Shown piece by piece: positions 11,050 to 50,119 of a stretch of DNA of 64,000 nucleotides (its first letter is position 1; each line of letters begins with the position of its first letter). The notes beneath the pieces are model-generated. The model was not told the origin of the DNA. It was given only the letters and a program-made list of their open reading frames with translations, and did not search any database. This stretch comes from Amoebophrya sp. A120 (taxonomy: Eukaryota > Protista > Dinoflagellata), in contig CAJINV010000015.1 in the NCBI GenBank assembly GCA_905178155.1, positions 581,309 to 645,308 on the forward strand. The letters run 5' to 3'. The translations under genes and the position numbers were made by a program.

Positions 11050-11540
11050 GAACTGACGAAAAGTTCGAATTTGCACGAGGAAAACGAATTTGTGATGTTG
11101 ATCACGATGAGTACGATCATACCGACAAGAGCGGGCAGCCTGCCGGAGAAAGTGCAAACGACCCTGAAGTACACCGAAATAAGGGCAAGCGCTCCAAATA
11201 GACCGAGCAATCGTGTCGGTAGTTCCTCGTCTGTTCATCTTGCGAACATCAAACGATGTTGACTGTACTAGCTAGGAGCGAATAACGAGGTTCGTTCGTC
11301 GTGCAGCTCGTCTGCGTCAAATCTTCACACTCACCTGCTCGAGGACGTACGATTTGTACGAAAATAAATACGTTTCCCGAATGTATGTTAAACGGTCTGC
11401 GAGCGCGATTCGATGGACGATGACGAATAAGTTGTAAGTCTAAGTACAGATACCGACTGATAATATTGCGTTTTTCATCTCTAGCAAAGCTTCTATGTGC
11501 TGTTGAATCGATCTTCACACGACCGATTGATTTTTCCATT
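11050..11540. repeat. Dispersed intergenic repeat, copy 2 (boundaries approximate)
   Basis: Direct diverged copy of 8540-9055. Confidence 0.8.
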
Positions 11541-11707
11541 CGACCAGCAGGAGAGGACGTCCCGGGGGTCTCAACCAGTACAAGAAAGAGGCATGCTCTT
11601 ATTTTCCATTCAGAGATGTTGATGTTCTTCTTGAAACCGTGAAGTAGTAGTAATCAAAGCAGGCAGACATTCCAGAACTTCTGCCTGCGGAAACGCATAT
11701 AGTCAAA

Positions 11708-29700: not shown

Positions 29701-32700
29701 TGCGCCTGGACAGCAATGACTGAATGCCCTGCCCCGGCGCCCGTCCTCGCTGACTCTGCCCAAGCGCGCAGCAGGGGCCCCAGCAAGCCCCTGCCCTGCA
29801 AGACCAAGCGCGGGAGAAGGGCGGGGGGGCACCAACGCGCACAGGAGCAGGGCGCACCGGCAGGCGTCACAGACGGGCCACAAAACAGACGCGCGGGCGG
29901 GGCGTGACGCGCCAGAGCCGCGCATGGCGCGGGCTGTTCTCCTGCTTCCTACCTTCCCCCGCCCACTGGCGCCCGCCCGCTGCCGCGCTTTGCGTCGTTG
30001 TGCCTAAGGCTTGCCGCCTCAGAAGCGCGGGCCCAATACGGGCGGGGTCCTCGCGCTCGCACAACGACGGGAACCACGGGCGCCATGGCGCTCCGCCTTC
30101 GTTCTTTCAACACGAAGCGGCGCAAAGGCTTGGCCCCGCCCTGCATCAGAATTTTTTTCCCTTGCCCCCCCTCTGGCGTTTTTCTTTCCCCCCTGTCAAC
30201 TCGTTAACCTTCCCACTGTGCGACATAAGCTGCGGCCTTGTATATACTATTTCCCGGGTACTGAAAACGTGTCTGTCATGCTAGTTAGGCAAAGGGGTGC
30301 CTTCTCTCATGCTAGTCAGCAACCCAATTCTGAACCCGTAGAAGCACAATGGTCGGCCTCCATTGCGTTCTCTGCAATGCAGTCGTTTTGGTGTCGCATT
30401 GCATGCATCACAAATTATTTCCACTTTGAGGATTTCCATTCTGAGGGTGTCATACGACCAGAGCCGAGAGATTCCGGTCGGACAACCTCACCGAAACTTC
30501 ATTGAACAGAGCGTTATGGATTGCAAAAGTGTCTGGGTCTGGAAGAGTGTGATAAACTTGTCATGCAGATTGTCCATGACCCATGAGGTCTGGAATGCGG
30601 GACTTAGCATGACAGACTCTGCGAGGTCTCTGCCATGCCTATCCTGCATGAGAAACTCCCTCGCAACTTGGTCGAAAGTGGACAGCTTTTGGTCATCATG
30701 CAACACAGATTTTTGCATGATTCTGATTTACCATGACAAGTTCCACTTTTCCAGACCCAGACATTTTTGCAGTTGATAGGCGTGAATCCCTTGCAACAGC
30801 TCCTGCTTCTGCTGCCGAAGTTCGAGCAGAAAGGTTTTTTTCTCCTGCTCGGAAAACGCCTTCTGCTGCGCGTCCTGCTGTGGATCCTTGTCTTTCGTTC
30901 GCGTAATATCCTTATCAAGTGTAAAAGTGTCTGGGTCTGGAAGATTCTGACACTTGTCATGCACGTTTTGCATGAGCCATGATGTCTGTGATGCATACCC
31001 TAGCAATACAGATTTCTTGAGGGCTTCTTGATGCCTATTCCGCATGACAGATGCCTTCTCAGCGTAGCAAAAATTGCATTCCCTTTCTTGGTACTCATGC
31101 AATACAGATTTTTTTGGAATCCAAATGCAGCATCACAAGTTGCATTCTTCCAGACCGAGACACTTTTACATTTGATAATCCTTGTTACCCGAGGAGGCAG
31201 AGGTCAACGACAGTGCGGAAACACCGTCGGCAGCGGCGGAGATGGCTGCGACCGCCGAAGAAGCTGCTGATGTCGCGGCTGCCGTACTACTTGTACTGTG
31301 GTCGCCGGGCTTCATGCTGTTTTTCCGTTTAACATTCCCACCGGCACCTACTGGGCCTGCACCTCCTGCAGCTCCAGATGCGCTTGCTCTTCCGACGAGA
31401 TGAGACAAAGCAAGCCCACCGCCGGACGAATTCGCGGAAAAGTTGCCGTGAACGATCTCGAAATACTGCGCAAACAGCTTGTTCTATCCAAGAATAAAAA
31501 AAATTGTAGGTGTAACCTTTTTGGAGGAACAGCATTACAAATTTGTCTGGCATGACAACAAAAACCTGTTATGCGCAGATAGTACGTGAAGACGCCCTGT
31601 AATGCACCCTACGACGCATGCCAAGCATGACAGACACAATCATCTTGCATGTTGCGCATCACAAATTTACACTAACAACGTTTTTTTCTTGGATATGTTC
31701 CCATCGTTTGCGGCGAAGGAGAGCTTCGTGAAAATCTCCAACGACGCGCGGAGCCAGACCAGCCAATATGCTGTGCAAGAGTATCGCACTCGTAGCAATC
31801 GCATGTATGCGCGACAAATCTCTTTTTCAAGGTAAATCAGCATGAGATATTCCACTTGTCATGCTGAGCAAATTTGTGATGCGATTACTACTAGTGCGAT
31901 GCTTTTGCAAGTCATAGCCAGTGGTCTCTGTTGAAGAGCGACCCAAAGCCGTGCGACAAGTCGATAAGCTTCTTCGTTTTTACCAGGTTTGCCTTGTCAA
32001 CAAAGTAGCAGTCCTGGAATAAAACCTGGGCCGACTGCTGGTAAAGCTCTTGGTGTTGACCACCTTGAAGATGGGATTCCAAAAAGGACCTCCCGGTGAG
32101 GCTCGTGCGATGAAAGAAGTCTTCATCTCGCACTAAGCAGCTGTCGGCGGTTTTTTGCAACAAAAGCGTCATCTCCTCCTCGAGATGAAAAGAACCGTTC
32201 AAAGCCAGCAGAAACTCCAGATGCTTCCACAACTTCTGCACAAACCTTAGCCTCTCCGCCTCCTCGTTGGTATGCTGCTGATGCTGCTGCGCGGCAGAGA
32301 TTTGTTGATGAGGCCCCGGCTTCGCTGTTCCACCTCCAGGATGATCTCCTGCTGCACTGGATACACTATTCAACATCGCTGGAATGACTTTCGGCTCGGA
32401 ATAGTACACTCCGTCTACTACACTGTTATTGCTCATGATCCCGATAGTCGCTGCACTTTGCGCCGCCTCTTCGTGTTCGATCCACAGCAGATTCTCATAC
32501 CCGACCACACGATGGCATGGCGTTCTCAACTGTTACACTCTCAGCTGTTACACGAATTTGTGACGCAAGAATGGTAACAATGAACGAGGCAAGCTTGCTG
32601 CTTTCGCATGACAGATTTGGCACAGATTTAGATGCTGTTTGGCCTCTCGTAGATTTGTCATGCGAAGCAGCTTAATGGTGGCAATCTTGGTGGTGAATTT

Positions 32701-35700
32701 GCATGACAAATTCATGTAACAGTTGAGAATGTAACACTTGAGAACGCCATAGATGGTCGTAGTTTTGTCGCCAGGAGAGGAGTTTCGAAACCGAGTAGAT
32801 CTATCCTGTGCAAAAGTATCGTACTCGTAGTAATTGCATTCATGCATTACAAATCTTTTTCTTAAGGCAAATCTGCATTACAAATTTCATTTCTCATGCT
32901 GAGAAAATTTGTAATGCAATTATACGAGTACGATACTTTTGCAGTTCATAAGATCAGGTTCGTCGCAACGCTGTCGAGACACTGCTTCACAGACAGTTGC
33001 TGGTCATTGTAATTTTGCTTCAGAAACCGGAAGGGGATCATCTTTCGCGCTTCCACGTCGGACACAGAATTCACCATGGCTTCGTACAAGCTAGATATGA
33101 TCGCGAAGAGGACCGAGACGTGAGAGTCGATGGTGGTAGAGGGCGCCGTGATTGTTGAGGACGGATGTTTAAAATTACTAGATGTTGAAAAAGGACAACT
33201 CGAAGAGGATGTTGGTCTACTGGATGTCACTCTCGAGAAGAACGACTGCTGCTTGCGCACGAAGTTTGGGAAGAAATCGTTGGTCATCTCCTGTTGAAAG
33301 CTGTCCCGGCCTAGAATGGGGTGAGTTCGAGTTGCCCCCGCTATCATGCGCTCGTCATGGGAGTTCGGACTTGCTTCATACCCCTCGTCCAGAAAATCTA
33401 CTTCGCCTTCACCTTCTGTCGTACTAGCATAGTACCGTAGAAACCCCACGTCTTTATGGGGTTCTCAAACGTTACATTCTCAAGTGTTACATGGATTTTT
33501 TGGCATGCAAAATTGCCATAAGCAACCGCACGACCAAGCGGCTGCGCATGACAAATCTCCGAAGGGCTAAACAGCATGGATGTCTGTGCCAAACTTGTGA
33601 TGCTCGAGTTGCAAGGTCCTCCCTTTCACTTTCGCTTTTCTTGCATCAGAAATCCACGCAACAGTTGAGAATGTAACATTTGAGAACGCCATAGTCTTCC
33701 AATAGGAATTTCGGGTCCCGGAATAGTTTCAGGAAAATGGAGTCTAGAAACGGGTTATCAAATGTAAAAGTGTCTGGGTCTGGAAGATTCTGAGACTTGT
33801 CATGCACGTTTTGCATGGGCCATGATGTCTGCGATGCATGCCCTAGCATTGCAGACTTTTTGAGGGCTTCGCGATGCCTATTCCGCATGACAAATGCCCT
33901 CTCCGCGTAGCCAAAATCGATTCCCTTTGCTGGTCATGCAATACACATTTTTTTGGAATCCAAATGCAGCATCACAAGTTCGGACTCTTCCAGACCCAGA
34001 CACTTTTGCTTTACATACGGGTAGCAGTAGTTTTCTGCTTCATCGTGTTTCAGTATATGAACGGACAAAATGCAAAACGGGACAGTAAAAAAACCAAGAA
34101 AAATCGTGATTTGTATCATTTAGTGTGTTTACAAACAACATCCGGAACGACCGACTGCTACTCCTCCGCGGATCGCAACACTCACGACTTGATCTCCTGC
34201 AAGACAAATTCGACGAAAGAACTTGGGAGCACAACCGACTGGTGTGGTTTCGGACCGCCTGCTGATCTTCGTGCTTCATCCTCCGTCAGAGCAAAGATCT
34301 CAGGCACTTTTTTGCCATGCACGAGCGGATACGACCAAAACTTGTGGTTTAATACAGAACCACAAGGATTCGCGCCAAGGGGAAACAGAGATACGAGGGA
34401 GAAAGTCGTGACTTGTTGGCGCACGCAACCATGCTGGGATTCGTTGCTACAGGTTCATTGAAAACGAAGACAAAAGGAAACAGGGTTTGCTAATAGTTTT
34501 GGTGACAACGTCCCTCGATTATTTTTGTTTGACTGTGTCTTATTTGCCTTTATCTGCAGAAGGTCTTGATGTTGAAGTTGCAACTAAAGTTCAAGTTGTG
34601 ATGTAGTGCTGCCAAAAAATAAAAATTACGACTTGCATAGGGTAACACACAACCGGGCGTCTGGGTCCTGTAAATGATGAAGCTACTTCTACTTCAACTA
34701 CATCTCGGTGTATCTTAATTTTTTTGCGAGCGAAATCGACAACGCAACACTGCTGAGAGCGAAGTGCTGACTTCCTACCTGGAAGTGAATGAAGCTGGTG
34801 CACGAGTAGACGGATCTACACTACGAACGACCGAAAAAGTTAGCTTATTGCTGTATAGAAATACGAGTGTAAAATATTATCATTAACATTCAGAATCTGA
34901 ATCAGAAATGTGCGAGAGTTTGAGTAAACTATTTCTGCAAATCATTCTACGGATTAGAAAAAGGCGCTACTGAAAATAAAACGTGGCGATGGAGTTTGCT
35001 TTTGCTAAATATAAACTGCTGATATTGATAAACTACACCTTCTGCTTCTTGCTCGGTGTGAGCTCCTCTTCATCCACTTTTTCATTTTCCTCATCATCAC
35101 CTTCCAACTGCAGCAAGTTGATCTTCTTCTCCTCCGCCTTCATCATGTTGGCCCGCATAGATGCGAACGGGTTCAGCAAGTCCACCTTGTTTTCCGCATG
35201 CGGATTGATCACCGGCGCGCTGGAGCTGGAAGAAGCGGAACTGCTGGAGGCCGCCGTGACCTCGGACACGACCTTCTTCGCCTCCTCCGTGAACTTCTGC
35301 ATGTTGGATGCCGCCGCGGCCTTGCTCCCGATGTGTTTCGAGATGTTCTGCATGTCGATGTCGGCCATGTCGCTCGAAATCATGCAGCTCCCCAGGTCGG
35401 CCATCGCCTTGAACGCTTCCTTCTCCTTCTGCAGGCTCTTGTCCCATTTCTCGCGGGCGGTCTTGCCGGTCGGCGGCTTCGTCGGGTCCTCCTCCATGTC
35501 GAAAAAAGCCGGCACCGGCTCTCTGGTTTTGAAGGGGATCTTGAACTTCACGCACAGCTGCTCGTCGCCCTCCAGGTCGAAGCGGTACGTGGCCGGCTTG
35601 AAAACGATGCTCTCCCCGTCGCCGATCGCCGCCGTGCACTTCCACACCATCTTCAACCCCTTCTGGTAAAAAGCGGCCTTGTCTTCCTCGAATTCCCCGG

Positions 35701-38700
35701 TCACGGTGATAGGGATTTCGACGCCCCGGACCTTGGTCTTCCGCGCCGCCGCAGTGTTCAGCCAGAACTCCGAGTTGACCCCCTCAATGTCCTTTTGTTC
35801 GTAAAACTCGCTGTCCAGACGAATGTTCTCCATGGACACCTTCGTCGTGATCTTGCTGCTCATCATGGAGTGCACCTCAAAAAAATCGAGGGTGGAGCAG
35901 GCCACCGCCTTCTCCTCCAGGTCGGTCAACAACTTCTTGTTCTCATCCCGCAACCGTTGCAACTCCGCCTTCTCATCGTTGTGCGCCTTCTCGATCTCCG
36001 TCGCCATTTCCATCTGCACGCTGTCGTCGTTGGAGTTGTTCCGCTTGATTTGTTTCTTCTTCGCCTCCTTGTTTTTCAGGATCGTCGCCCGCAGCTTCGA
36101 GTACTTGGATTCGCAGTCGTTAATCTGCCGGGTCAGCGCAGTTGTCGCCAACTTCCCCTGCTTGGTGTAGTACTTCTCCTCCACGTTCTCACACTTGCCC
36201 ACGATCGCGCACTGCTTGTTGTCCAACATCTGAAACGCGCCGGCATTGGCGTAATCCAGCCGCACCACCGTCTTCGCCACCAAGTTACCGCAGGCAATGA
36301 CCGGCGCGTTGAGCAGCTTGATCTGGGTCATGCCCTTGAAGGCCTGGGGGGTAATTTCCATCAACTTCGAAATCGGCGCGAGGATGAGACTGAGCCAGCC
36401 ACCCTGCTTGTTCTGCTCCTGTGCCCGGGCCTTCGACAACTTCCACGTTTCGGGGTAGGCCAGGCCACAGTCCTCCGGGGTTAGCCCCACGACGGTTTTG
36501 GTCTGCAGGTCGGTCAACTTCAGGTTGTCGCGGTCCTGTGGTCGATGAAGTGGGTTGTTGTGAGAAGGGCGACATCAGATGGCTCTACCTCTACGCATGA
36601 CAAATTCTAAATCTTCTCCTTCAAAATCAAAATTGCAAAAATATTTTAACGATGAGATTCCACGAGTCCAAAAAAAAGCAAGCAGCTATACCGTCCACAC
36701 CAACGCCTCCCGGTCCTCGTCCCACTGCTTTCCGGTCTTCGCGTTTCTGATCATCTCGGCGATGATGTGTACGAGAATTAAGTTCTTTTGTATCCAGAAG
36801 AAATAAAAAAAGAGATCAAGGTTGGGCGGGAAGTGTGCATGACAGATTTTTTTTTGGATACAAACAGACTTATTCTGCATGACAAACTTTAACTTTTACT
36901 GTGCATGATCATGATTTTGCATGACAGACTGCGACTGGAGTTGGAACATCTTCACGCGATCGCGATAAAAATTTTGCATGACAGATTTGCTGAACATATA
37001 TTCTATCTTCCCCTGCGTCGACCTTGTTCTCATTATACTCACTGCCATACGCTCCTGGACTCGCTCCGACATTCGGGTGCCCGCAGCTTCGTCTGGCCGC
37101 AGGTAGTTGTTCCGCACCAGCTTGACGATCGCTGTCATTTCCTCCACCCCGATTTTAATTCCCTTCACCCCCGCGTACAACTCCGTCTTCACAAACCCGT
37201 CCTGGCCGCACCACAGCTGCAACCACGCAGACGCCGAGTAATCCTTCACCGGGGGCGTTTGGTACTGGAGCTTGACAGCGTATTCATGAGCAAAGCAGGC
37301 GAATTGGTTCACGCTGGTTGGTGCGGTTCGAATTTGACAAGACCAACTGCAGAGCACACAGTGATCTGCAGGTGGTAAGCACCATCTTGCACAAAAATTA
37401 ATACAGACAAATTCCGGACCAACTCTGTTGAAGCAAAACACCAACGTCTGCGCCATACAACGCGGATGACGGAGCTGTGGCGAGATGTAATGTGGGGTGG
37501 GGAGTGCGTCGTGCTTTTTGTGATGCATTACGGCACTATGCAAAGCAAATCTGTCATGCGTAGAAAGCAGCACACTACCTGATGAACTGGGCATACTTGG
37601 ACTCGTCGTTCCTCGTGGAATACCGCCGCATAAAATGCGGCCAATTGGTCGACAGCCTGGTCAACAGCTTACCCAGGTACAAGAGCTCGGTAATTTCGTA
37701 GTGATTGCGCGTGGCAATGCAATAGGTCTGTTTTCGGAACGTAAATAGAAATAGGATCAGAATTTCTCATGCAGTTTTCGAAATTAATAGGATCAGAATT
37801 TCTCATGCAATTTCCTCAGGCGAATTAAACAACAACCAGAAGCGATCACAAAGACCATCGATACCCGATAAAAATCCAGCTCCTCCTGGGGGGTGGGTTT
37901 GTGCTTCAGCGTTGCCTTGTGCTTGTTCCAAGCTTTCTCGATCTGGAATGTGAAAGAAGTGCTTTGCTATTTTGCTAACTTCCAAAAACAAAACCCAAAA
38001 ACAGCTCGCATTAGTCACGTCATCATCTTCGCACTAGTCACGTAAAGCAATTTTTTTTCCTAAGTCTTGATTGCCACCGCGCTGATCGACATCCGCGATT
38101 TTGCAAAACCAGCAATAAGGACTAGCACCTGCAGAACAACAACAAAGGCCAAACGATGGCGCGCAAGAGCAGTAAAAGCCAAACCAAGAAGAGCGGGGCA
38201 AAGGCTGCGCAGAAGGCAGCGGCGGGCAAAAAACTGCAGGCGAGGCCGACAGGGCATGGCAAAGAAAACGCAGCGGATGGGGAAGAGCGCAGCGGTTCCC
38301 TGAGTATGTGCGACGCCCGTCGATTTGCAGACCAACTCGCAAAATCAGCAGGGCGGAAAAAGAAGGCCGGCGAGGCCTACAAGCTTTGCTGGCTCCTGCA
38401 ATGTTTCACGGGGCGGAGGGGCATCGACGTTCGCTCCCTCACCCTCGCGGACGTCGAGCCGGGGCGGGTGCGCATCGGAAACAGTAAGCTGGCAAAGCAA
38501 CCAAACGGCCGCGGCCACCTGAAATGGGTGCCCATCGATCCGGCGAAAGCAACGGCCACCTTCATAAGAAACCAGCTCGCGCAGATGCGCGAGGACGGAA
38601 AAAAGGCGGGCGATAAGATTTTCAATTTTGGATATGAGGCGTTCGAGCTGAAGGTGAGGCAGGTTCGCCAAACCTTCAAAACCCGGAACGCCCTCTCCTG

Positions 38701-41700
38701 CCCCGCGACGCTGATTACGTCCCACACGCCAAGGCGATCCCTGGCGTCCCACCTGTTTCGCAACAGTGTCGCGCTATCAACGATTCAACAGATTACTGGC
38801 CACGCATCTGTTGCGACCCTGATGAGATACATCAACGCGGACTACAGTTTTCAGCTGCAGGCCGCTTCGCTCGTCAAAATTTGATAAGAAACAAAACGCA
38901 AAAAGGATTTAATTTACCATGGGAAAAAGTACGAGCACTTTCTCAGCCGTAGTGGCTTCCATCCCGGTAACACCCTCGTTTTTACAATTAATGTAAGTGT
39001 CGAGAAGTCGACTGAACTCTGGCTGGTCGAGTCGTTCATCCAAGATGTTGCACCTTGGTTGTTTTTTATTTTTGTCATGCGGATCATAGGCATCTCCCTG
39101 TGAACCACCATGATACTGCGCAACTACCATGGGGAAACCGTTAACCCTATTAATCTTACAGTAAGACCGTGTCTGGGAATTTGAATGTAAAAAAATTTCA
39201 AAAACAGATGCAATACACGAGCCCGATTTTGAACGCACGGTCCCCATACTTCGCATGGAAACGGAGGAGCGCCTGAATGCTGTGATTACCGGACACCGGG
39301 CGGAGCTTGCCCTTCGACCGGAGCAGGAAGATTTCTGGAAGGTGTTATTTTTTCAAATCTGTAATGCTGTTCATTTCGAATAGAAGAGTGGCTGCATGAT
39401 GCTTTTCAACTTTTATCTGCTATGAGAATTTGTCATGCGGAAACGATTTGAAAACAGGTAAAGTACTGGCGGTGTTGTAAAAATTCCCCTTCACCATGTG
39501 GCCGAACAACTCGATCATCCACGATAACTTCCGCAACAGGTTCTTCGCGTGCATCGCGATCATGGTGAGAATCGTAGCGGTGATGAGGATATCACCGGGC
39601 TGCGTGCGGTCGTAGCACCGGTCCTCGACGAAGTCGATAAGCTGCTGCTGATTTTCCAACTCCCCGGCGTCCTTCTTCCGGAGCAGCTCGTCCGCTTCTT
39701 CTTTCGTTGGAAAGGTAGTAGGGGTTATTTCTACTTTTTCCTTGTTGGCTTCTTGCTCGTCGGACTCCAATTTGGGCCCGCCCGGAAGGAGCATATCCTT
39801 CAAAGCCTCACCGGCGTGCATGATTTTTGCAGTTTTTTTCTAGTGTGTGCAACGCCTGAAAAATTACAAAACACTCATAAAATGCTACTACTCTATCTGC
39901 TGAAGGCGTCTTTCGAAGCATGCAATCTCGCAAATCATCAACAGGTAAGAGCACATCAAAGACGGAAAATTCAAGGCCCGAAACAGTTCTTCAAGTGGTC
40001 ACGACAGGTCCCAGAGAGAGGTATTTGCATTGGAATGAATGCTGTCCAACATAGATTTTTCTGTGAATTTCACATGTTTTTCCAAGTCGCAAAAAATAGG
40101 CGAATCAAGAATCTTGGTTTTTTCCTAGATTTTTTTTCCGCGAATGGACAATTCTTGGCCAGAACCTGGCTTTTTGGCGAAGAATTGGCCAAACGGAGGA
40201 AAAAAATCAAGGAAAAAACCAAGATTCTTGATTTGGTGATTTTTGGAGGTCGTGAAAACTCATCAACTTCTCGCTAAAAAAAGGCTACCCGCGCCTCGAT
40301 CTCATCATTAATTTAGTGGTGGAGAGTTACATTCTACGACCCAACGAACGCGGAACACACGACGAAAAAACGCAAAACGAAGCCGATTTCATGGCGAGCG
40401 CAACAACGTAGGAGGCTGGTACTAGCTGTTTTATAGAAGCACTCCACGCAGTCCACTCTACATTTTTACTACTATGAAACGCCTCAAACGTTATGTCTCG
40501 GAGCAGTCGAACCGCCACTGCTACGTTCCAAAACCGAATAAACAAGCGGAGCCAAAGTTGTACTAAAATTATACAAGAAAATGCTTTGAGCCAGAGCCGG
40601 CTAAGAAACAAACTAAAAGATCACGCACCTGTGCACAAACATCAGTTGTCTTCATCACTTGACTCCTCACTGTCACTACCATCCTCCACCATCTTGCTGT
40701 ACTTCGCGGTGCTTTGAATGTACTGCTGTATCACCTGCCAGGATGCTTGCTCCTCAGCATCAGTGACATCCGGAAGGGGTTCGTTTTTGNNNNNNNNNNN
40801 NNNNNNNNNNNNNNNNNNNNNNNNNNNNNNNNNNNNNNNNNNNNNNNNNNNNNNNNNNNNNNNNNNNNNNNNNNNNNNNNNNNNNNNNNCGCAAAAAATA
40901 GGCGAATCAAGAATCTTGGTTTTTTCCTAGATTTTTTTTCCGCGAATGGACAATTCTTGGCCAGAACCTGGCTTTTTGGCGAAGAATTGGCCAAACGGAG
41001 GAAAAAAATCAAGGAAAAAACCAAGATTCTTGATTTGGTGATTTTTGGAGGTCGTGAAAACTCATCAACTTCTCGCTAAAAAAAGGCTACCCGCGCCTCG
41101 ATCTCATCATTAATTTAGTGGTGGAGAGTTACATTCTACGACCCAACGAACGCGGAACACACGACGAAAAAACGCAAAACGAAGCCGATTTCATGGCGAG
41201 CGCAACAACGTAGGAGGCTGGTACTAGCTGTTTTATAGAAGCACTCCACGCAGTCCACTCTACATTTTTACTACTATGAAACGCCTCAAACGTTATGTCT
41301 CGGAGCAGTCGAACCGCCACTGCTACGTTCCAAAACCGAATAAACAAGCGGAGCCAAAGTTGTACTAAAATTATACAAGAAAATGCTTTGAGCCAGAGCC
41401 GGCTAAGAAACAAACTAAAAGATCACGCACCTGTGCACAAACATCAGTTGTCTTCATCACTTGACTCCTCACTGTCACTACCATCCTCCACCATCTTGCT
41501 GTACTTCGCGGTGCTTTGAATGTACTGCTGTATCACCTGCCAGGATGCTTGCTCCTCAGCATCAGTGACATCCGGAAGGGGTTCGTTTTTGTATTCGCAC
41601 ATCTGTCCGCAGAGCTCCCTGCGGGCCCGCGCGATTGATTCCCGGTCCAACATCCTCCCCGTAGTTACCCTGGAAAAATTCACATCCTCCAAACTAGTCA

Positions 41701-44700
41701 AACCGCCACCACGAACCTTGCGGCGAAACCGGATCGGAATTTTTCCCGACCAGTTGCTGTTCTCCGGTCGGAAGATGATGTACAAATTTTCCAGCAGGGA
41801 GGAGTGCTTTTTTTCTGGCACTGCGTCAAACATGTTGTAGTTCTTCCAAGGGTCCTCGCGCTCGGTGCGCGACGATGCGGCTTTAGAAAAGGAGGCCCCC
41901 TTGACATCCTTGTTCTTCGCCGATTCCGCATTCCGCACAACAACATCGGCCCGGAGGTACTCTTTTGCCTGCCAGCGGTTTTTGTCGACGACGACATACA
42001 GCTGCTTGTCGTCCATCGTCCAGGAAAAATGCGCCGTGGGGTTTGAGTGCCATTTGAACATCTTCGTGAGCGTGGTCGGGGCGGGACGGGATGTCCAGTG
42101 GGCGACCGTTTTCACCGAAGGCTGCGCAAGCTGCACCGGGTATCGCTCGCACTCTCTTCCTGCGATGGTAAAAACATCCTTGAGCGGGCCGCATGCTAAC
42201 AACCATCCCCGCTGCTTCTTTGTCCTGAAGCACAAGTAGGGAAACTCCGGGTCTGGGTTGCGGCCCGTCGGAACGCGCACGACGAGATCACCAGTCTTCA
42301 CGTAGGTCATTATGTTGACCTTCGACCCGATGTGCCACTTCAACGTGGCGGGAACGTCGAAGAAGTTCTTCACAAGCTCCGGAACGACTGTAGCACCATG
42401 CTGACCAAGGGGACCACCGACACGGCCGGGCTGCTTCACCGCTGTGTTCTCGCTGTAGTCGGCCTGCGCATGCAGTGCGTGCTCGAGTGTTGGGTGGACG
42501 TACTCCCGGTCGTTCACCTTTTCCAAATCCACGAGCACCTGGTTCTCAACCACCATCTCCTCCTCCATCCCGAAAAGGTCATCTTCCTCCGCCTCGTTGC
42601 CACCCGGCGCCGCAAGTCCGCGCACCTGCCGCGCACGCTTAGCAGCCTGCTTCCCCTTTTCGTCTTTCGCGGTCGCAAATCTGTTGTCGCACAACTTCCG
42701 CACAAGTTCTCTGTTTTCCTTGTACTCGCTGAAGGACATGCTGAGCTCGTCGCCGATTTGTGCGCGAATCCCTGCGCGCGTGCACCCGAGATTTGGCGCG
42801 ACCCGTTTGTTGTTGGTGGTAGTACTGTGTCGCGCTTCTGTGACCTGCGACGACGAAACCATGAGGGGCACCAAGGGGCCGACGATCTCCTGTAGCCGGG
42901 CCGACATCGCTCCGCCGTTTGCGACCTGTTCAAGATCGGTCTTGTGCGGGATCTGGATCCAATTGAGAAAACAATCGCAGTCATCTTTGGGCAGGAGGAG
43001 CAACAACTGTGCTGATTTTTTCGCCGTATCGTCCACCGTGTCCTGCAGCCCTCGCAACAAATTCGGATACGTCCAGAGCGTCTTCTCCCGCGTCGGCAGC
43101 CGGATGAAAACATTCAACAGCAACAGCATCCCCGTGGTATCTCCCGGCCTTGTCAGCATGTGGTTCTCGATGGCCCGGAGCAGCTCGGTCTTTGTTTTGG
43201 GTTTGTGGCAGTGGTGCGCCATCTCCGCCAGTCGGACATTGGTGTAGACCTGTTTCAAGTCGGCCTTCAGCCGGTTGCTCTGCGACGAGACGATGGTTAA
43301 AGCGGCGCGAGCAGATTCACACGTTGACCAAAACGCCGGGTCCGCTGCGGACTTTTTCGCCGCTTTAGCCGTTGCGCGGTTTTCTTCTTTTTTGTTTTTT
43401 GGTTCCAGGTTCCGCAGGAGCTGCTGTATCTGGGTGCGGTTTTTCAACAAATCCTCAACACAGTCCGAGAACGTCTGCCACCGGTGGGACTGATACTCCC
43501 GGATCGCCATGTGCTGCGGATCCCCGGTCTCCGGCCCCCAAAAGTGAATCGCTTTTTGCAATTTCCCGACCTCCCCAACAAACCCGTCCCGCATGGAGTT
43601 CAAAACCTGGAGATGCTCGCCGTCCAAAAGCGAGTACTGGTGGTGCAAGCATACGAGCTGGACCACGAATGTTTGGATCAGGAGGCCGCTTTTTTGCCCC
43701 CGCGCCTTTTGCTCCTTGCGTTTGACGTTCAGCGCCCTGCTGCACGTGCGCAAAACGTTCATCGCCTTGACGACATCGCTGCCGCAGTCTGTGCAGCTGA
43801 TTATCACCAGCAAGGGGTCCGACGGGAAGTCATCCACCGTCGATCCCGGCATGGGGATCAGATCCGCGAGCAAGTGGTACAACTCGCATAGGTACGAAAG
43901 ATAACCACGCGCAACGGAGCCGTGCTTCGTCGGTGGCGGCACAAATGTTTTCACAACCGGAACCCCGTCCACCATTCGCACCAACGTGACGTCGACCGCC
44001 AGAAGCTCGGCAGAGCGGAAATCGGTCGCGTCGGGAGCTATGCGGACCACAACGAGCGGTCGCAACAACTTCGGAACCTGATCAAGCTTCGCCTCCTTTT
44101 TCGCAAGGTGTTCTGCCAACTTCGAATCCGCCTCCAGACGCATCTCACCCAGGAATCGCCCGTTGAAAACAAAAGGCTGCCAGTACTTCTGCCCCTTCGG
44201 GTTAATGTCCGTGTCGAAGATGCAGTGAAGGTCGCGCTTGGTCCGCATGTCGTAACACTTCCCGGCCAGGACCTCACTCCGCTCTGCCATCTTCCGATAC
44301 GTGTCGAGCAGCTGCTTCATGTAATCGTCCGCGCGCTGCTTCTCCGCCTTCGCTTCGTCGTGTGATTTGTTGTTTCCCAGGATGTTGAGTTTCTGCCGCT
44401 TCGCGGCTCCACCAGCTAAAGCCAACTCGCCACCACTCTCACCGCACCCCAACTCAAAAACCCTGCTTCCCGTCGGCGCTAGCATCTCCATGGTGCCGAG
44501 CACGTTGAACCTCGTCTTCTGCGTGACAATTTCGGAAAAGCCCCAAAGCTTCTGCAGTAGCGCGATCTTCTTTGTTGATGTTCCAGTACTTGTCCCGACC
44601 ACGTACTGCAAGTACTCATTTCTTTCCTTCCTGGTTTCCAATTTTTCAAATTCGGTTTGGGAGTAGTGGGCCTCGAATTCAGCCCAGACGGAGCGACGCT

Positions 44701-47700
44701 GCGCCTGTCGAAGCCGGTTTGAGTTTCATTGATTAGTAGCTCTAGCTGGAAACGGAATTATGCAGACGAGATGGATGGGAACTAGTACTAGATGTAGAGA
44801 CGCGAGCTGCATGACAAATTCAAAAAGCAGACTTGATTTTGAAAATCTAATGACGAATAGATCTAACTGTAACTGTAACCCTAAACCACAACCAGGCACC
44901 TCTCCCGTCCCATCTTCGTCATCCACTTTGCTGTTGGGGCCTCGCTTCGGCCGCTTGCGACCTGTGGAACCAAGGTCGCAGTTGGGAATCTTCAAGCCGT
45001 GCCGCTCCTCCATTTGGGACAGAACGAACGAGCGGATGGAGGAAACGCTGGCCCATCTCGCCGTTACCGCGCCGCCCGCGGTTTTTGCCCGGCGGTTGTA
45101 TGTCCGCTGGAGACTTCTCTCGCACGGCGGAGCAGTTGTTCCCTCGCCCGTGGCGGCGATCTCCTCGAGCCTGGTAATGACCTCTACTACATCGCCCCAC
45201 CCATCGATGGATTCCACCAGTTCGCGCGCCTCGCCATAATCGCTTAGCACCTGGACCGTTTTCGAAGATGCGCCAAAAACTCCTTCGTCGCTACTGGATC
45301 CGCCGGCGTTCTGGTTTTCGTCGAGGCCAACATCGACGTCGATGTCGTCGATGCCTGGTATAAAAAGATTCGCGACGTCGTCCATCTCTATGCCGGGAGG
45401 AAAGCGGCGGTATAGCACGATAGGACGGAAGACACAATGCGCACGCAGGTAAGAGGACACGACTACGCCATTTTTTTTTTTCGGTCTTCGTCTTTTAATA
45501 TCGTGGTCGAAGTCGAAGCGATTGCATGTTTGTATTGCGTAAGAAATCAAAAGCAAGACCAAATATAAAAACAATAGGAAAAGTTGTTATGGGTTTCCAC
45601 ATAATCAAAGTCAGTTTTAATTTACAATAAAGGCAAGGCAGTGTCAATGTCAAATCTATCAATAATGAAGGGCGGCTCTCTTATTTTCGTTTATCGTTAT
45701 CGCATCAGAATCAAAATGAAAAAAAAAAACTACAGGTGCGAGGCTCGGGTGCATTTCGTGACAGCAGGATGGGGAATACTACTTACGCAATCAGCTTTAC
45801 ATTCATTAGCGACAACTATGTGCGACGACAACAACTCCCAGACAGACACTAGCGACGACCATGATGCTCCAGCTCCTGTACGAAAATTGTAACGACTTGA
45901 ACTCCAACCCCCCGAAAGAGAACAACCGAAGAAAACACGAGCCCCCCTTCATGATAACGAGGTCGATTTGCAGTCGAGACCGATGTGAGCTCTGCACGTG
46001 CACGAGCACTTCCCGAGGAAAAAACACAAGTGCGCCACATAGACCAACAACTACGCCACGACACACCTGTGGTCGCTGTCGGGCTACTACTGAAGATCAA
46101 GATTGTACGCACACAGCAGCAGCCGTGAATTGTCAGGGCGCGGTGGGATCACAATCACCAAAAAATGAAGACCTACGCACATGATACGACGGACTCGGGT
46201 AAACGTCGCGCTCGTGAACGAGATGAAAACTATTTTTGGTTCCATGAAACAAAGTCAAAGCGCAAGTGCTAGCGCACTTATCACTGCGCCACCTCAGATC
46301 TCAACCTCGTACGCCCTTCGCACCAGGGGAGAACGGAAGATCTTCCCGCACGGCCACAACCTGCTCTTCCAGTTCACCACATCCACAGCAGCGTCGCATT
46401 ACAAACCTCCCCGACCGGTCGCGATACCTGATGTTGTTAGTAGTGGCTGTTGCTGGCGAAGGAGATGGAAACTCAAAAACTTATGATGAACATTTGAACT
46501 GTTGGCATTACGCATGAGATTTGAAAAAATTACGAACGTGAAGAGCAAGGCGCTCCAACTTGTTTCTTCAACATGCATGCTCATTCGGTGCTTTATGCAA
46601 ACCATTTCCAGCAACAGACACTACCAACATCATCGGCATCTGTAATGCTAATTCCAATGCGGAGCAACAGCAATAAATCTTCCCTGAGCTGCCCGGCCAT
46701 GATGTGATCCGCTCCCGGTTTCTCATTATCAACAGGCCGGCCATGTTCCTGGTCCACTTCCAACTTCTTCGGACTTTCCCTATAGGCGAATCCTTGTGGT
46801 TCTGTATTAAACCACAAGTTTTGGTCGTATCCGCTCGTGCATGGCAAAAAAGTGCCTGAGATCTTTCAATGTGGTTGCTGATCTTCGCGGGCCGAGCAGA
46901 ATGATCGCGTTCAGAAATCCGAAAAGACCATCGTCTGCACTTCCGCGTCGCAGCTTCGTTGTTGTCGATTCCAGTCGTTGTCGGTCGGCCAAGCGGTATC
47001 GTCGCGTCGCCTCACACATCGGTTTCGAACAAAGCAAAAGCTACAAATCACGATTTTTCTTGGTTTTTTTGCTGTCCCGTTTTGCATTTTGTCCGTTCAT
47101 ATTTCAGTACCACGCAGGAACTGTCCAGGGCGTAGGAGAGCAGGTGGGACAGTTCCTCGTGGAGACAAGTGAAGAAGGTGAGTGGAGCGACTTCTGTGAG
47201 TAGACCGCTATCATTTGCTGTACTGTAGTCCTCTTCTCCGTTCTTGCCGTGATCTTTTTGCGCACCTGCTGTACTAGTACCGCCACCTTCATCCACCCTA
47301 GTAGAAGCGGCGGGGGCCCCGTGCTGGTGTAGCTGCCCGGCAGAATTACGTCCGCCAGATTGATGTTCCCGCAAGCACAGGCCGGCGACGATGTCCGAAA
47401 CTTTTGCCACAACCCGCTTAGAAGTACCAGACGATGATCCACCAGCTGCACGAGAAAAGGCGCTGGAAACTGTACAGCGTCCCTCACATATCATCAGGTT
47501 CTTGAGTAAAACCGGCGTGACAAACAATTTCAGCAAAAAGCACAAATCTTCGCTGTCCATCGTGAACAGTTCCATTGCTTTTCTGTTCAGCACCACAGTC
47601 TCAATCAGCTCCAGACAAAGCAACCGGGGCCACCGGACGGAGCACAGCCAAAATCCCGGCTTGGTTTGGAGAAAGTCCTGGTTTATTTCCTGAAACTGGG

Positions 47701-50119
47701 AGGACGCGGATCGCTGCAGCAGATGGCCACTTCCGGTTGATGCTCCACTGGGGTTCGTAGAAGACGAGGACCCGCCCGTGATAAAATTCATTCCTGCGCC
47801 GAGAATGCTGGTCACTGGATTGAGCTTAGAAGCTGCTGCTGCTGCTGTAACCGCACTGGAAGTAGGTCCTTGTTGGCCAATGTTTATTCCCAAATTGAGA
47901 TTAGACCCAGCTGCGCTGCCCCCACTTCCGACTGGTGTGCCGGGGATCGAAGATGAATCTCCAGTAGTGCTTTGTTCAAGAGCAGCGGCTCTCCTACACT
48001 CCGCTATCTCCTCATCGCTGCAATCCAGCATGACACACAAATCCTGCAGGAATAAATAAAGCAGTCGGACAGCGACGTCGGTGCTGTTCGTGGGTTGTCG
48101 TGGCTTCGTGTTGCGGAATTGCGAAGTTTGAATCGACGCGGAAGCGGAAGCCAGCATGTTGGACATCTTGTTCCGGGCTGTGGGATTGAAGGGGGGCTTG
48201 CTGTAGTTTCCAGAACCTGCATTGGCTTTACCTCCTGGTACAGACGAGGTAGGTCCTCGTCCTAGCAAGCCGAATTTCGGCAAAATCCCCGAGTCCAAAT
48301 CCTGCAGCCATGGAGGTGGCGGGTGCGATATTACCGGCTTCTTGTGTCGGCCTTTTTTGCTTTTCTGGTGGCGAGAACCAGCTCCCGCCGACTCGTGATG
48401 GTTATCATTATCTGCAATACCTGGCGGGAGAGAAGAAGACTCCCCGGTGCTTCCGGAGATCGGTAGTTGCCTCCTCTGACCAGTAGAGGACGAAGTTGCA
48501 CCCGCCCCCCCTCCGTCCGTTTCAGAGCAGGTGGACTTTTCGTTATCGCTGTGTTGTGCGGTGTATGCATTGCAAAAGTATCGTACTAGTATAAATCGCA
48601 ATACAAATTTTTCCAGAAGGAAAAATGGAGCTTGTGATGCTGATTTCGCTAAGAAACAAGATTTGTCATGCATAATTTCAATTAGTACGAGTACGATACT
48701 TTTGCACAGGATACGGTGGTACCTCCGGATTCGCCCGTGGCACTAATTGGAATGTTGGTGCTGCTGGCATGAAGATTTATTTGCCGCGAAGAAGATGATC
48801 CACCAGCGTTTTGATGTTCCACCGCCTGACATGCCGTTTCTGTCAACTGCTCTGCCAGTTGCAACAGGCTCCCCCGGGCGACGCTCTGGACGACTGGGGA
48901 GGGAAGTTGAAGCAGGATGGAGAAAACCTACGTTGATAACAAGTTCAGAATTTTGGATGCAGCTGCTTGTCGCGCAAGCCTACGCTATGCGAGACATCAC
49001 ATGCACAGCATGCGGATCTACTGTGCATGCCAAATCACGGTCACTTCTCACTGAAACAGCCGAGGTAAAAAAATGTAGAGTACGTCACGCTGGCGCCATA
49101 TCAAATGCAAAAATGTAAATGTCTGGGTCTGGAATGAAGCAACTTGCCATGCCAAATCTGAATCATGTAAAAATCTGTGTTGCATGATTACCAAAAGCTG
49201 TCCACTTTTCACCTAATCGAGAGACTGTTTCTCATGCAGGATAGGCATGATAGAACTCTCACAGAATCTGTCATGCTATGTCCTACATGCCAGACCTCAT
49301 GGGTCATGGAAAACCTGCATGACAAGTCTAGCACTCTTCCGGACGCAGACATTTTTGCATTTGATACGCCAGCCTTACCTGCAAAAGCTGCTCCACCACA
49401 ACTTCCCTGCTTGAGTGGTCACCAGGCGCCTGTAGTCCGCCCCCGGGGGAAATGGAACCAGCTCCAATTGTTCCTGGTGATCTGCCTCCCCTATCGCCAA
49501 CGCCAACCGTTCCCACCATTGCCAACTCTCTCGACCCCGCGATGCGTTGCAAAATTTGCAAAATCTGCGTTGCAATGGACTCATTGCTGCCAAAAGCGAT
49601 GGCCTGCTCGCGGAGGAGGTTAATGAGTGTGATCAACTGCTCCGCGTTGCTCGCGTCGTTTTGAATTTGTGTTGCGGTGACAATATGAGAAGCTGGATTT
49701 GTCATGCTGGAAGGAGATGTTGAAACAACTGCTGGTGATGAGACCAACCCAAAGTTTTCGACCACCCGTAGCGCGATCTTGAGACACACCGGTATCATTT
49801 TCACATTCCCGGTTTCGCAGCATTTTCGCAGGCACGTCACGTAAGTTTTCAGAGCGGTTGGTGCAGTAGAACTATCGCCCTTGGTGCTCGTCGTTGTGCT
49901 TCCAGTGTCGGTCGTGAGATTCCCTATCTGCTGACAGGCGGCAATGGCTTGCTTGACCTGCTGGCTTCGACCAAAAGTCGAGCATTCCGCAAGCAACGCT
50001 TGAAAATCCTTCTCCAGCTCGTGGGCGAAGATTTGCAGGGTTTTCTCGAAAGGAGGTGCTCCGGGCCCGCCAACCCTTCCTCGGGAGGAGGAAGACGAAG
50101 AGGAGTTCGTGGCTTTCAT
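14800..50119 (-). CDS. MON2: MON2-like (Sec7/BIG-related Golgi-endosome trafficking scaffold), ~35-kb gene split by ~22 introners, canonical introns and a 13-kb transposon; 3' end approximate
   Basis: N-terminal DCB-like LEKDFQALLAEC...CLRKCCETGNVKMIPVCL...IATQILQIL; HUS-like RLLCLELIETVVLN; VNVSFTAIKYLWESAD; WLQLFRQLQISCLDPRREVRDCALKSL; KQWGQSV; C-terminal LILCEERAIRDPL. The exon joins I tested are in frame after removing the element plus one DR. Confidence 0.85.
15269..15576. mobile_element. Introner family A
   Basis: tatggaactgtcaggattgaaat / atttcaaacctgacgcttccata; DR ccgtc; join ART-GDAVQEIF in frame. Confidence 0.93.
16418..16567. mobile_element. Introner family C
   Basis: tatcctgtgcaaaagtatcg / cgatacttttgcagtgcata; DR attct. 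Confidence 0.92.
17205..17920. repeat. 17-bp tandem minisatellite (GCTCGAAATATTTCCCA)n with degenerate flanks
   Basis: Near-perfect array ~17326-17820, no spacers. Confidence 0.97.
18100..18650. repeat. Degenerate ~105-150-bp tandem repeat, about 5 units
   Basis: Recurrent core ttcccctgggtagccagaattgctgYgctaaacacagcaactcgg. Confidence 0.85.
20107..20255. mobile_element. Introner family C
   Basis: tatgaactgcaaaagtatcgcactcgtataaatgc / gcatttatacgagtacgatacttttgcacaggata; DR ggagg. Confidence 0.93.
21526..21793. mobile_element. Introner family B
   Basis: tatcaactgtaaaagtgtctgggtct / agacccagacatttttacatttgata; DR gccgt. Confidence 0.93.
22271..22597. mobile_element. Introner family H (single copy here)
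   Basis: tattgagaggaaaaatcccccctccccatatcaaa / tttgatatggggaggggggatttttcactttgata; DR acaac. Confidence 0.92.
24005..24267. mobile_element. Introner family B
   Basis: Family B TIRs; DR gcagt. Confidence 0.93.
24319..24626. mobile_element. Introner family A
   Basis: Family A TIRs; DR agaaa. Confidence 0.93.
24960..25221. mobile_element. Introner family B
   Basis: Family B TIRs; DR aatcg/aatcc. Confidence 0.9.
25285..25415. mobile_element. Introner family I (diverged)
   Basis: tattgacagaaaaaaaacc / gttttttcctggaagata; DR gctgt/actgt; related to 57364-57481. Confidence 0.75.
26015..26253. mobile_element. Introner family D
   Basis: tatggcgttctcaactgttacaccctcaactg / cagttgagaatgtaacgtttgagaactccata; DR cccag. 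Confidence 0.93.
26349..27178 (+). mobile_element. Non-autonomous Helitron-like element
   Basis: 5' TCTATTATA; 3' GTAG; GC hairpin gccccggc-gtcg-gccggggc (27148-27167) 11 nt before the end; sits between host A and T with no TSD. Confidence 0.65.
27340..28350. repeat. (CGGCCAA / CGGCCAAATCGCAAA / GGGAAACGGCCAAC)n minisatellite spanning an N gap
   Basis: Direct inspection either side of the gap 27574-28275. Confidence 0.9.
28640..29390. repeat. ~18-bp purine-rich minisatellite (GGGAAGCACGGGGAAAAC)n
   Basis: Direct inspection; N gap 28979-29078. Confidence 0.9.
30515..30778. mobile_element. Introner family B
   Basis: Family B TIRs; DR agcgt/ggcgt. Confidence 0.9.
30913..31177. mobile_element. 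Introner family B
   Basis: Family B TIRs; DR atcct. Confidence 0.93.
31485..31695. mobile_element. Introner family J (single copy here)
   Basis: tatccaagaataaaaa...gtgtaa / ttacac...ttttttcttggata; DR tgttc. Confidence 0.88.
31767..31916. mobile_element. Introner family C
   Basis: Family C TIRs (diverged); DR gccaa/gccag. Confidence 0.85.
32516..32751. mobile_element. Introner family D
   Basis: catggcgttctcaa / ttgagaacgccata; DR gatgg. Confidence 0.92.
32802..32950. mobile_element. Introner family C
   Basis: Family C TIRs; DR agatc. Confidence 0.93.
33455..33693. mobile_element. Introner family D
   Basis: Family D TIRs; DR gtctt; join LLED-VGFLRYY in frame. Confidence 0.93.
33756..34017. 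mobile_element. Introner family B
   Basis: Family B TIRs; DR cgggt; join YCYP-FLDSIF in frame. Confidence 0.92.
34056..34115 (+). repeat. Left TIR of the 13-kb element
   Basis: tatgaacggacaaaatgcaaaacgggacagtaaaaaaaccaagaaaaatcgtgatttgta. Confidence 0.96.
34293..34373 (+). repeat. Left 81-bp internal inverted repeat containing a 13-8-13 palindromic site (34337-34370)
   Basis: Exact reverse complement of 46786-46866; core aaaacttgtggtt-taatacag-aaccacaaggatt. Confidence 0.95.
35033..36517 (-). CDS. Transposon cargo ORF, at least 494 aa, unknown function (coiled-coil middle, acidic tail, C-terminal PSKKQKV NLS-like motif); probably has upstream exons at ~36690-36790 and ~37050-37340
   Basis: Long open frame with strong GC3 bias; no family recognised. 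Confidence 0.7.
   Translation of the reverse strand: MTDLQTKTVVGLTPEDCGLAYPETWKLSKARAQEQNKQGGWLSLILAPISKLMEITPQAFKGMTQIKLLNAPVIACGNLVAKTVVRLDYANAGAFQMLDNKQCAIVGKCENVEEKYYTKQGKLATTALTRQINDCESKYSKLRATILKNKEAKKKQIKRNNSNDDSVQMEMATEIEKAHNDEKAELQRLRDENKKLLTDLEEKAVACSTLDFFEVHSMMSSKITTKVSMENIRLDSEFYEQKDIEGVNSEFWLNTAAARKTKVRGVEIPITVTGEFEEDKAAFYQKGLKMVWKCTAAIGDGESIVFKPATYRFDLEGDEQLCVKFKIPFKTREPVPAFFDMEEDPTKPPTGKTAREKWDKSLQKEKEAFKAMADLGSCMISSDMADIDMQNISKHIGSKAAAASNMQKFTEEAKKVVSEVTAASSSSASSSSSAPVINPHAENKVDLLNPFASMRANMMKAEEKKINLLQLEGDDEENEKVDEEELTPSKKQKV
38156..38884 (+). CDS. Tyrosine recombinase (phage integrase/Xer/Fim-like catalytic domain), 242 aa
   Basis: Complete R-K-H-R-H-Y set: FTGRRGIDVRSL (R), GNSKLAK (K), SHTPRRSLASHL (HxxR), TGHASVATLMRY (H...Y). 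Lys/Ala-rich N-terminus. The only clear plus-strand gene in the window. Confidence 0.93.
   Translation: MARKSSKSQTKKSGAKAAQKAAAGKKLQARPTGHGKENAADGEERSGSLSMCDARRFADQLAKSAGRKKKAGEAYKLCWLLQCFTGRRGIDVRSLTLADVEPGRVRIGNSKLAKQPNGRGHLKWVPIDPAKATATFIRNQLAQMREDGKKAGDKIFNFGYEAFELKVRQVRQTFKTRNALSCPATLITSHTPRRSLASHLFRNSVALSTIQQITGHASVATLMRYINADYSFQLQAASLVKI
38909..39821 (-). CDS. Putative multi-exon cargo gene of unknown function, convergent with the recombinase
   Basis: Coding-like segments 39460-39821 (MHAGEALKDMLL...) and 38909-39150, separated by AT-rich intron-like stretches. Confidence 0.4.
40089..41590. other. Apparently identical ~700-bp duplication on both sides of a 100-N gap; probable assembly artefact
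   Basis: 40089-40789 matches 40890-41590; ORF translations are identical. Confidence 0.8.
40103..40233. repeat. Long imperfect palindrome downstream of the transposase (also at 40905-41035 in the duplicated block)
   Basis: aatcaagaatcttggttttttcct...aggaaaaaaccaagattcttgatt arms. Confidence 0.85.
41444..45385 (-). CDS. hAT-family DDE transposase, predicted 2 exons (45385-44900 + 44704-41444, ~1248 aa)
   Basis: hAT motif order: VRIAPDATD (D1), SCTDCGSDVVKAM (D2, cf. TDNASNMVKA), VCLHHQYSLL (CxxH), HRWQTF (cf. TRWNS), SSSQVTEARHS (E, cf. SSAxSERxFS). Phase-0 GT-AG intron 44899-44705 with a CTACTAAT branch-like motif. Confidence 0.85.
46786..46866 (-). repeat. Right 81-bp internal inverted repeat containing the 13-8-13 site (46789-46822)
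   Basis: Exact reverse complement of 34293-34373. Confidence 0.95.
47042..47101 (-). repeat. Right TIR of the 13-kb element
   Basis: tacaaatcacgatttttcttggtttttttgctgtcccgttttgcattttgtccgttcata. Confidence 0.96.
48564..48713. mobile_element. Introner family C
   Basis: Family C TIRs; DR cggtg. Confidence 0.93.
49099..49366. mobile_element. Introner family B, apparently inside a canonical GT-AG intron
   Basis: Family B TIRs; DR cgcca; minus-strand CAG|GTAAG donor just outside at ~49378. Confidence 0.88.

Follow-up and report, generated by a model that had tools for sequence, protein, structure and literature searches.

A predicted hAT-type transposon with a tyrosine recombinase interrupts a MON2-like exon of Amoebophrya sp. 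A120 and may leave the transcript by splicing

A large transposon interrupts an exon of a MON2-like gene in a 64,000-nucleotide stretch of the Amoebophrya sp. A120 genome (GenBank assembly GCA_905178155.1, contig CAJINV010000015.1, positions 581,309 to 645,308 of the forward strand). This whole stretch is called the window, and all positions are given within it. The element lies on the minus strand between two identical 8-mers, TACTGAAA; it begins with TATG, ends with CATA, and is bounded by a terminal inverted repeat (TIR) of 62 bp with at most two mismatches. These boundaries confirm the claim of an earlier sequence-only reading that the element interrupts a MON2 exon, the host being MON2-like, but the length of 13 kb given there needs correction. 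The assembled element measures 13,046 bp, which includes an exact 702-bp duplicate on either side of a 100-N gap. Only after the duplicate and the gap (802 bases) are dropped does a single 11,664-nt DNA contig match the interior, with a discrepancy of no more than 6 nt, which puts the true length near 12,240 bp (∼12.2 kb); a genuine internal duplication of 702 bp was rejected on this basis in favor of an assembly overlap.

Seven of 11 runs were compared (X1, X3, X4, X5, X7, X8, and X9; X2, X6, X10, and X11 were left out), and the RNA nature of the RNA-like runs among them was guessed. Low-depth contigs were aligned to the two flanks separately (41600-50300 and 30400-40080); X9, which is raw RNA, placed 0 reads. 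With the flanks aligned apart, a joint spanning the element would surface only as a loose end, and there was no such end among those listed, a further 260 and 105 loose ends and 75 joints lying outside the listing. At the left junction, a DNA contig passes from the exon into the element without interruption and ends 29 nt inside it (just under the 31-nt bridging rule of the tool), and the right junction is spanned by a DNA contig built from noisy reads. DNA contig depth is 41.6 over the interior and 25 to 27 over the flanks, which hints at a second copy without giving a copy number.

Three side observations concern the element itself. The X1 DNA contig differs from the window at 42911 and 43614, which are the third base of codon 605 and the second base of codon 371 in the transposase frame, reflecting either a second copy or assembly errors. 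A 399-nt contig of X5 matches the terminal repeat (47046-47102) over 57 nt with three differences and then diverges; it belongs to a related element at another genomic location. Finally, an imperfect palindrome of 155 bp (80%) within the element, at 40092-40244, has motifs that resemble those of the terminal repeat and is possibly a transposase-binding array or a nested small element.

The name MON2-like is a weak assignment from protein sequence, resting on Pfam hits that fall in the correct order, DCB (E = 9e-4), HUS (E = 0.002), and HDS (E = 0.018), all under the curated cutoffs. Sec7 gave no Pfam hit in the open reading frames (ORFs) scanned, and looking for longer MON2 homologues yielded no full-length one. 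The host frame is open for ∼1,300 codons, from 48558 to 25400, after removal of one GT-AG intron and 10 TAT..ATA elements, each taken out together with one copy of its direct repeat. When the transposon and one copy of its duplication are deleted, the peptide reported in the sequence-only reading, SSCVVLK-HDEAENYCYP-FLDSIF...LLED-VGFLRYY, is reproduced, and the frame stays open beyond it. That reading also described long open MON2 exons on both sides of the insertion, which holds upstream but not downstream, where an exon of 30 nt is followed by one of 57 nt.

The main open frame of the transposase spans 1093 codons and gave no Pfam hit; no hAT Pfam domain was found in the element protein or in 13 relatives. 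Pfam scans of the transposase likewise returned neither Dimer_Tnp_hAT nor a BED finger, while its language-model neighbors were hAT/DUF659 clusters (0.85-0.87), which we treat as a lead only. An initial homologue search returned nothing and a sequence search of the PDB nothing significant; a search of representative homologues gave 22 relatives at ∼30% identity. Across 13 aligned sequences, D, D, CxxH, W, and E are kept in hAT-like contexts, and all are present in the element protein; we take these columns to be the DDE-triad and helical-insertion motifs of hAT transposases, with 317 residues separating the second D from the E. A fold predicted from the single sequence was poor (predicted local distance difference test [pLDDT] score of 35), and a model of the core built from 14 sequences reached a mean pLDDT of 65. 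All 11 Foldseek hits to the core model with an E value of ≤0.001 were the Hermes transposase, which also came top in a wide structural search (Z = 10.8, 359 residues aligned, root mean square deviation of 8.1, TM score of ∼0.33). Because Hermes-like fold matches occur together with an 8-bp duplication, we assign the element to a divergent hAT with a predicted transposase, for which a putative first exon probably starts near 45385. The transposase would have cut and pasted the element, creating the 8-bp duplication.

The element also encodes a tyrosine recombinase, with six homologues at 51 to 62% and intact catalytic motifs. The sequence-only reading had overlooked this gene, together with a pair of lox-like sites and an inner inverted repeat that is exact over 81 bp. 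The spacers of ∼175 bp between the inner and the terminal repeats have diverged between left and right, yet the two 81-bp copies are identical. The two predicted recombinase sites are the sole palindromes with 9-bp arms and a 6- to 8-bp spacer in the whole element, and lox and FRT sites are likewise built of an arm, an 8-bp asymmetric spacer, and a second arm. The recombinase would bind both inverted 9+8+9 sites and invert a core of ∼11.5 kb; such an inversion would spare the ends, so that any splicing signal there would be unchanged. A 363-nt contig of X3 runs from the left outer end through the shared repeat into the right interior, and a 408-nt contig of X8 has the same joint of left end and right interior, with a length consistent with the same path. 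Since the left end meets the right interior in both, these contigs are the product expected from inversion of the core.

On this evidence we lean, with some reserve, toward a recombinase that inverts the core between the two predicted sites. There is also a real possibility that the core does not flip in the chromosome, the recombinase resolving transposition intermediates or being passive cargo; this would be compatible with splicing. The flipped contigs would then be chimeras, as the 81-bp repeat is able to link unrelated branches of an assembly graph, and X5 contains the collinear, unflipped left end over 966 nt. Resolution of intermediates is what PMC3212892 suggests for Tec1/Tec2 in the passages covered. 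The flipped path is, however, present in two samples. Cre- and Flp-type recombinases acting on paired inverted sites produce inversion rather than resolution, and two identical inverted sites within one element favor inversion accordingly.

The element also carries genes of no assigned function. One cargo gene contains a 264-nt non-canonical intron that an RNA-like contig of X8 lacks, and skipping it extends the cargo frame; the element's own genes use host non-canonical splicing. The ends of this intron are GT..AA on the minus strand, with no matching direct repeat. A second cargo ORF, of 513 codons, gave no match in an atlas search and weakly matches (E = 5e-6) the C-terminal part of a gene model of Amoebophrya AT5.2 that also contains the transposase. 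The named homologues of both the transposase and the recombinase are from AT5.2, where two of the four recombinase homologues have a transposase homologue two gene numbers away (g1758/g1760 and g2071/g2073). The neighboring pairs and the gene model that matches both the transposase and the 513-codon ORF indicate, at the level of sequence, that transposase and recombinase belong to a lineage-wide element family rather than being nested by chance. Scans for the locus in metagenomes were positive for 0 of 240 candidate stretches and for 1 of 88 (L001, a 41-residue match), and those in viral contigs for 0 of 10. A DIRS/Ngaro retroelement was rejected, as no reverse transcriptase was hit in the scans. 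The features are collected in Table 1.

Table 1. Features of the transposon and of the MON2-like gene that it interrupts (window coordinates)
Feature	Position	Strand	Remark
MON2-like exon on the upstream side, HUS-like region	47102..48558	-	RNA-like pieces present
8-bp target-site duplication, upstream copy, at the end of the MON2-like exon	47102..47109	-	sequence
Transposon (13,046 bp assembled, ~12,240 bp without overlap artefact)	34056..47101	-	
Left terminal inverted repeat, 62 bp, starts TATG	47040..47101	-	
Left copy of exact 81-bp inner inverted repeat	46786..46866	-	
Predicted lox/FRT-like recombinase site, 9-bp perfect arms, 8-bp asymmetric spacer	46793..46818	.	predicted function
hAT-type DDE transposase, main open frame, 1093 codons (D232, D313, C359xxH, W416, E630)	41444..44725	-	
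Exact 702-bp duplicate around 100-N gap (assembly overlap, not biology)	40088..41591	.	
Pair of short open frames lying between the recombinase and transposase genes; may be a single gene split by an intron	38909..39839	-	no family hit
Tyrosine recombinase (Phage_integrase, E = 3e-13); R, HxxR, H, Y motifs present	38126..38884	+	
Cargo gene without assigned function, 264-nt non-canonical intron (37050-36787); lower end approximate	36680..37660	-	
513-codon cargo ORF without assigned function	35033..36574	-	weak match to AT5.2 gene model
Second predicted lox/FRT-like site, in opposite orientation to the first	34341..34366	.	predicted function
Right copy of exact 81-bp inner inverted repeat	34293..34373	+	
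Right terminal inverted repeat	34056..34117	+	
Downstream copy of the 8-bp target-site duplication	34048..34055	-	sequence
30-nt MON2-like exon immediately downstream of the insertion	34018..34047	-	
Small introner of MON2-like gene, missing from run X3 along with one copy of its 5-bp repeat	30913..31177	-	joint 30907 to 31178
4.15-kb TAT..ATA introner of MON2-like gene, 5-bp direct repeat, swollen by nested GC-rich repeat element	26306..30454	-	

On indirect evidence, we consider it probable that the element is removed from the MON2-like pre-mRNA by the non-canonical splicing of the host. Exon pieces of X3 match the gene without a mismatch on both sides of the element, at a depth of 3 to 5 each; of the modelled exon bases, the pieces listed take in 1263 of 2379 on the upstream side and 564 of 1807 on the downstream side. 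A 270-nt joint in X3 drops the downstream small introner with one copy of its direct repeat, and because this introner is skipped within the MON2-like gene, X3 behaves like RNA. If the MON2-like gene is functional, its 4.15-kb introner must be spliced out as well. At the insertion itself X3 is neutral evidence: an exon piece ends at 47111 and the 30-nt exon is uncovered, in a cover that is patchy and has other gaps of ∼400 nt. Several other segments lack cover, which is not evidence by itself; these are the interior in X3 (bar one trace bin), 41600-46136 in X5, the right outer segment (34116-34292) in X3 and X8, and the MON2 exons in X5 and X8.

The ends of the element suggest how removal could work. 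They form a predicted duplex of -93 kcal/mol over 60 nt, stronger than those of all 15 small introners compared (-37 to -68 kcal/mol). In the pre-mRNA the 62-nt ends would pair as a stem, bringing the exons together regardless of the length between them, and the machinery that acts on the small TAT..ATA introners would then cut inside the duplications. Removal of all 8 repeat bases would restore the exon exactly; removal of 5, the rule for small introners, would add one codon and keep the frame. Because 8 minus 5 is 3, the frame survives each of the 15 possible removals of 5 or 8 bases of repeat. The canonical GT at 47110 was rejected as a donor, the nearest AGs (34038 and 34035) being out of frame by inspection.

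Several points weigh against this interpretation. No splicing step of the element was directly observed, and an intact frame after removal is expected for any clean or young insertion. RNA-like contigs extend over the left outer segment of the element (depth 5 in X3, 17 in X5, and 21 in X8), so that MON2 transcripts could read into it and end early; X3, X5, and X8 were moreover taken as RNA by guess. The likeness of the ends to those of small introners is weak beyond TAT, and the duplication differs in length. The fold model of the transposase is of moderate quality, the name MON2 depends on hits below threshold, and the flipped contigs can be graph chimeras. We therefore regard the splicing claim as plausible but unproven, and we favor, by a modest degree of belief, the combined explanation in which a ∼12.2-kb hAT-type transposon with a recombinase sits in a MON2-like exon, is spliced from the pre-mRNA, and has its interior flipped by that recombinase.

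Those same left-end contigs would be expected if the insertion breaks the gene, an alternative that we judge unlikely. MON2 transcripts would then stop a few hundred bases into the left end, the downstream half would be expressed separately from a right-end promoter or by read-through, and the loss or split of the gene would be tolerated in culture. The unspliced frame does reach a stop 15 codons into the element, and the 8-bp duplication and the weak likeness of the ends set the element apart from introners. Nevertheless, a single run contains the two halves of this copy of the gene at comparable depth, with the downstream one processed. An A120 introner family described in file 8 of PMC12130899 (fam65) also speaks against a gene break, being Mutator-like with an 8- to 9-bp duplication and GG/CC ends; from this entry, TAT ends and 5-bp repeats are seemingly not required. 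This and the other papers named by PMC number are cited for the passages covered.

It is highly improbable that the source of the mRNA is instead a paralogue, an allele free of the element, or cells that have lost it by excision from the DNA. The transposase frame is intact, and contigs drop rare variants, which would leave room for an empty allele in a minority. However, the left junction lies within a single unbroken DNA contig, one contig explains the exon depth at 92% likeness, and the RNA-like pieces match this copy of the gene without mismatch.

If removal from the RNA is accepted as the better account, the question becomes how the element relates to the small introners around it. Most of those checked have TAT..ATA ends and 5-bp direct repeats, 9 of 14 segments being perfect and 3 more having one mismatch. 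The sequence-only reading held that one removal rule serves both, which is so in that deleting the element together with one repeat copy restores the frame, although the repeat is 8 bp in one case and 5 bp in the other. It also likened the TAT...ATA ends, and the TAT[G/C] start is indeed common to both; the likeness beyond this is weak, with profile scores of 0.0 to 2.7 for the element, whereas 38 ends of small introners have a median score of 10.4 and a minimum of -1.6. Scores as high as those of the element ends are reached by 2 to 4% of 154 internal TAT sites. The 8-bp duplication and hAT-type transposase, against 5-bp repeats in the introners, point to different superfamilies. We find it very doubtful that the hAT is the autonomous partner mobilizing the small TAT..ATA introners: despite the common TAT[G/C] start, an A-run near position 11 to 15, and a lack of other candidates (no A120 transposase is reported in the passages of PMC7789003 covered), the small introners make 5-bp repeats, for which reason the hAT is probably not their mobilizer, a self-comparison of the window found no match between the element and any small introner, and PMC12130899 classes a family with 5-bp duplications and TA/TA ends as Ginger-like.

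Other features of the window were noted in passing. The GC-rich insertion in the 4.15-kb introner contains tandem repeats and two N gaps, and removal of the introner preserves the frame. GC-rich stretches at 19023-20041 and 29445-30242 match each other, and the former adjoins a 17-nt tandem array (17029-17951), which suggests a second copy of the nested GC-rich element. An introner at 49099-49366 sits 11 nt inside an intron starting with GT and not in an exon. Upstream of MON2, on the same strand, lies a gene with weak hits to P-loop ATPases (52360-54234), and two stretches of ∼500 bp (8544-9055 and 11052-11541) match each other.

There are known cases of transposons turned into introns, some of them autonomous, and one A120 family carries an ORF (PMC12130899); that family, number 38, is ∼0.8 kb. 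Among all 58 A120 family rows of that 2025 dataset, none has hAT as its final class; fam135 has hits to hAT termini but is classed as non-long terminal repeat, and several A120 family alignments are 14 to 24 kb, so that long annotated members exist. In PMC7789003, published in 2021, gene-model introns extend up to 35 and 90 kb, introns were called with an aligner limit of 10 kb, and the analysis was limited to 40 to 1000 bp. With these limits, and with no A120 transposase reported in the passages covered, elements such as this one would have been missed. The same source leaves the removal of non-canonical introns in Amoebophrya as an open question.

The best-supported new content here is a hAT-plus-recombinase family with paired lox-like sites, which would add a eukaryotic system of site-specific recombination. 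A bolder reading, which we hold to be less likely than not, is that Amoebophrya has its own family of giant hATs, in which a Cre/Flp-like module flips a gene-bearing core while fixed ends permit hairpin-guided splicing from a coding exon. If this is true, splicing in this lineage would work by end pairing independent of length, and an active multigene transposon could hide as an intron. A 12-kb substrate with an 8-bp repeat bears on whether end pairing suffices at any length, and it separates a cut of the whole repeat, with exact restoration, from a fixed 5-nt rule, with one extra codon. In the literature searched, most subscription papers lying outside the search, there was no report of this family or of a hAT with a recombinase and an invertible core.

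With the hAT superfamily (Hermes, Ac, and Tam3) the element shares an 8-bp duplication (one insertion site examined), TIRs that are longer than usual at 62 bp, and a predicted DDE core with a helical insertion, CxxH, and W motif, Hermes being the best fold match. It differs in having no detected hAT Pfam domain, a long extra C-terminal region, and a length of ∼12 kb with recombinase and cargo; its named relatives occur in Amoebophrya only.

The paired inverted sites, each an arm, an 8-bp spacer, and an arm, flanking the gene for a tyrosine recombinase recall the Flp/FRT system of the yeast 2-micron plasmid and Cre/lox. Here, in contrast, the carrier is a chromosomal transposon rather than a plasmid or phage, the arms are perfect over 9 bp, and recombination is predicted from sequence. 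Flp is also named in PMC3212892, in the part covered.

A DDE transposase, a tyrosine recombinase, and additional ORFs of no known function within one alveolate TIR element are also found in the ciliate transposons Tec1/Tec2, Sardine, and Thon (PMC3464196 and PMC3212892), which likewise have complex ends with nested repeats; removal by the host makes the Tec copies tolerable. Their transposases are Tc1/mariner (DD35E), unlike the hAT-type enzyme with 317 residues from the second D to the E, and they are cut from DNA during macronuclear development, whereas removal here would be from RNA.

The nonconventional introns of euglenids (PMC11282704) share RNA-level pairing of the ends, junction repeats resembling target-site duplications, and lengths up to several thousand nucleotides, but they belong to an unrelated lineage with a different end motif, and the passages covered describe no autonomous, gene-carrying case.

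The closest comparison is with the introners of Amoebophrya itself (PMC7789003 and PMC12130899). Insertion into an exon, TAT..ATA ends, a TIR with a direct repeat, the absence of GT-AG ends, and restoration of the frame by removing the element with one repeat copy are common to both. The A120 end motif of TAT, seven free bases, and As (PMC7789003) is a near fit to the TAT, eight bases, and AAAA of the element. The differences lie in size (∼12 kb against 150 to 310 bp for most neighbors), in the repeat (8 bp against 5 bp), and in the full transposase, recombinase, and cargo. Its repeats of 8 nt and 62 nt exceed the limits in PMC7789003 (direct repeat of 3 to 5 nt and inverted repeat of 8 to 20 nt), so it is not an introner in the strict sense of that definition; if spliced, it acts like one.

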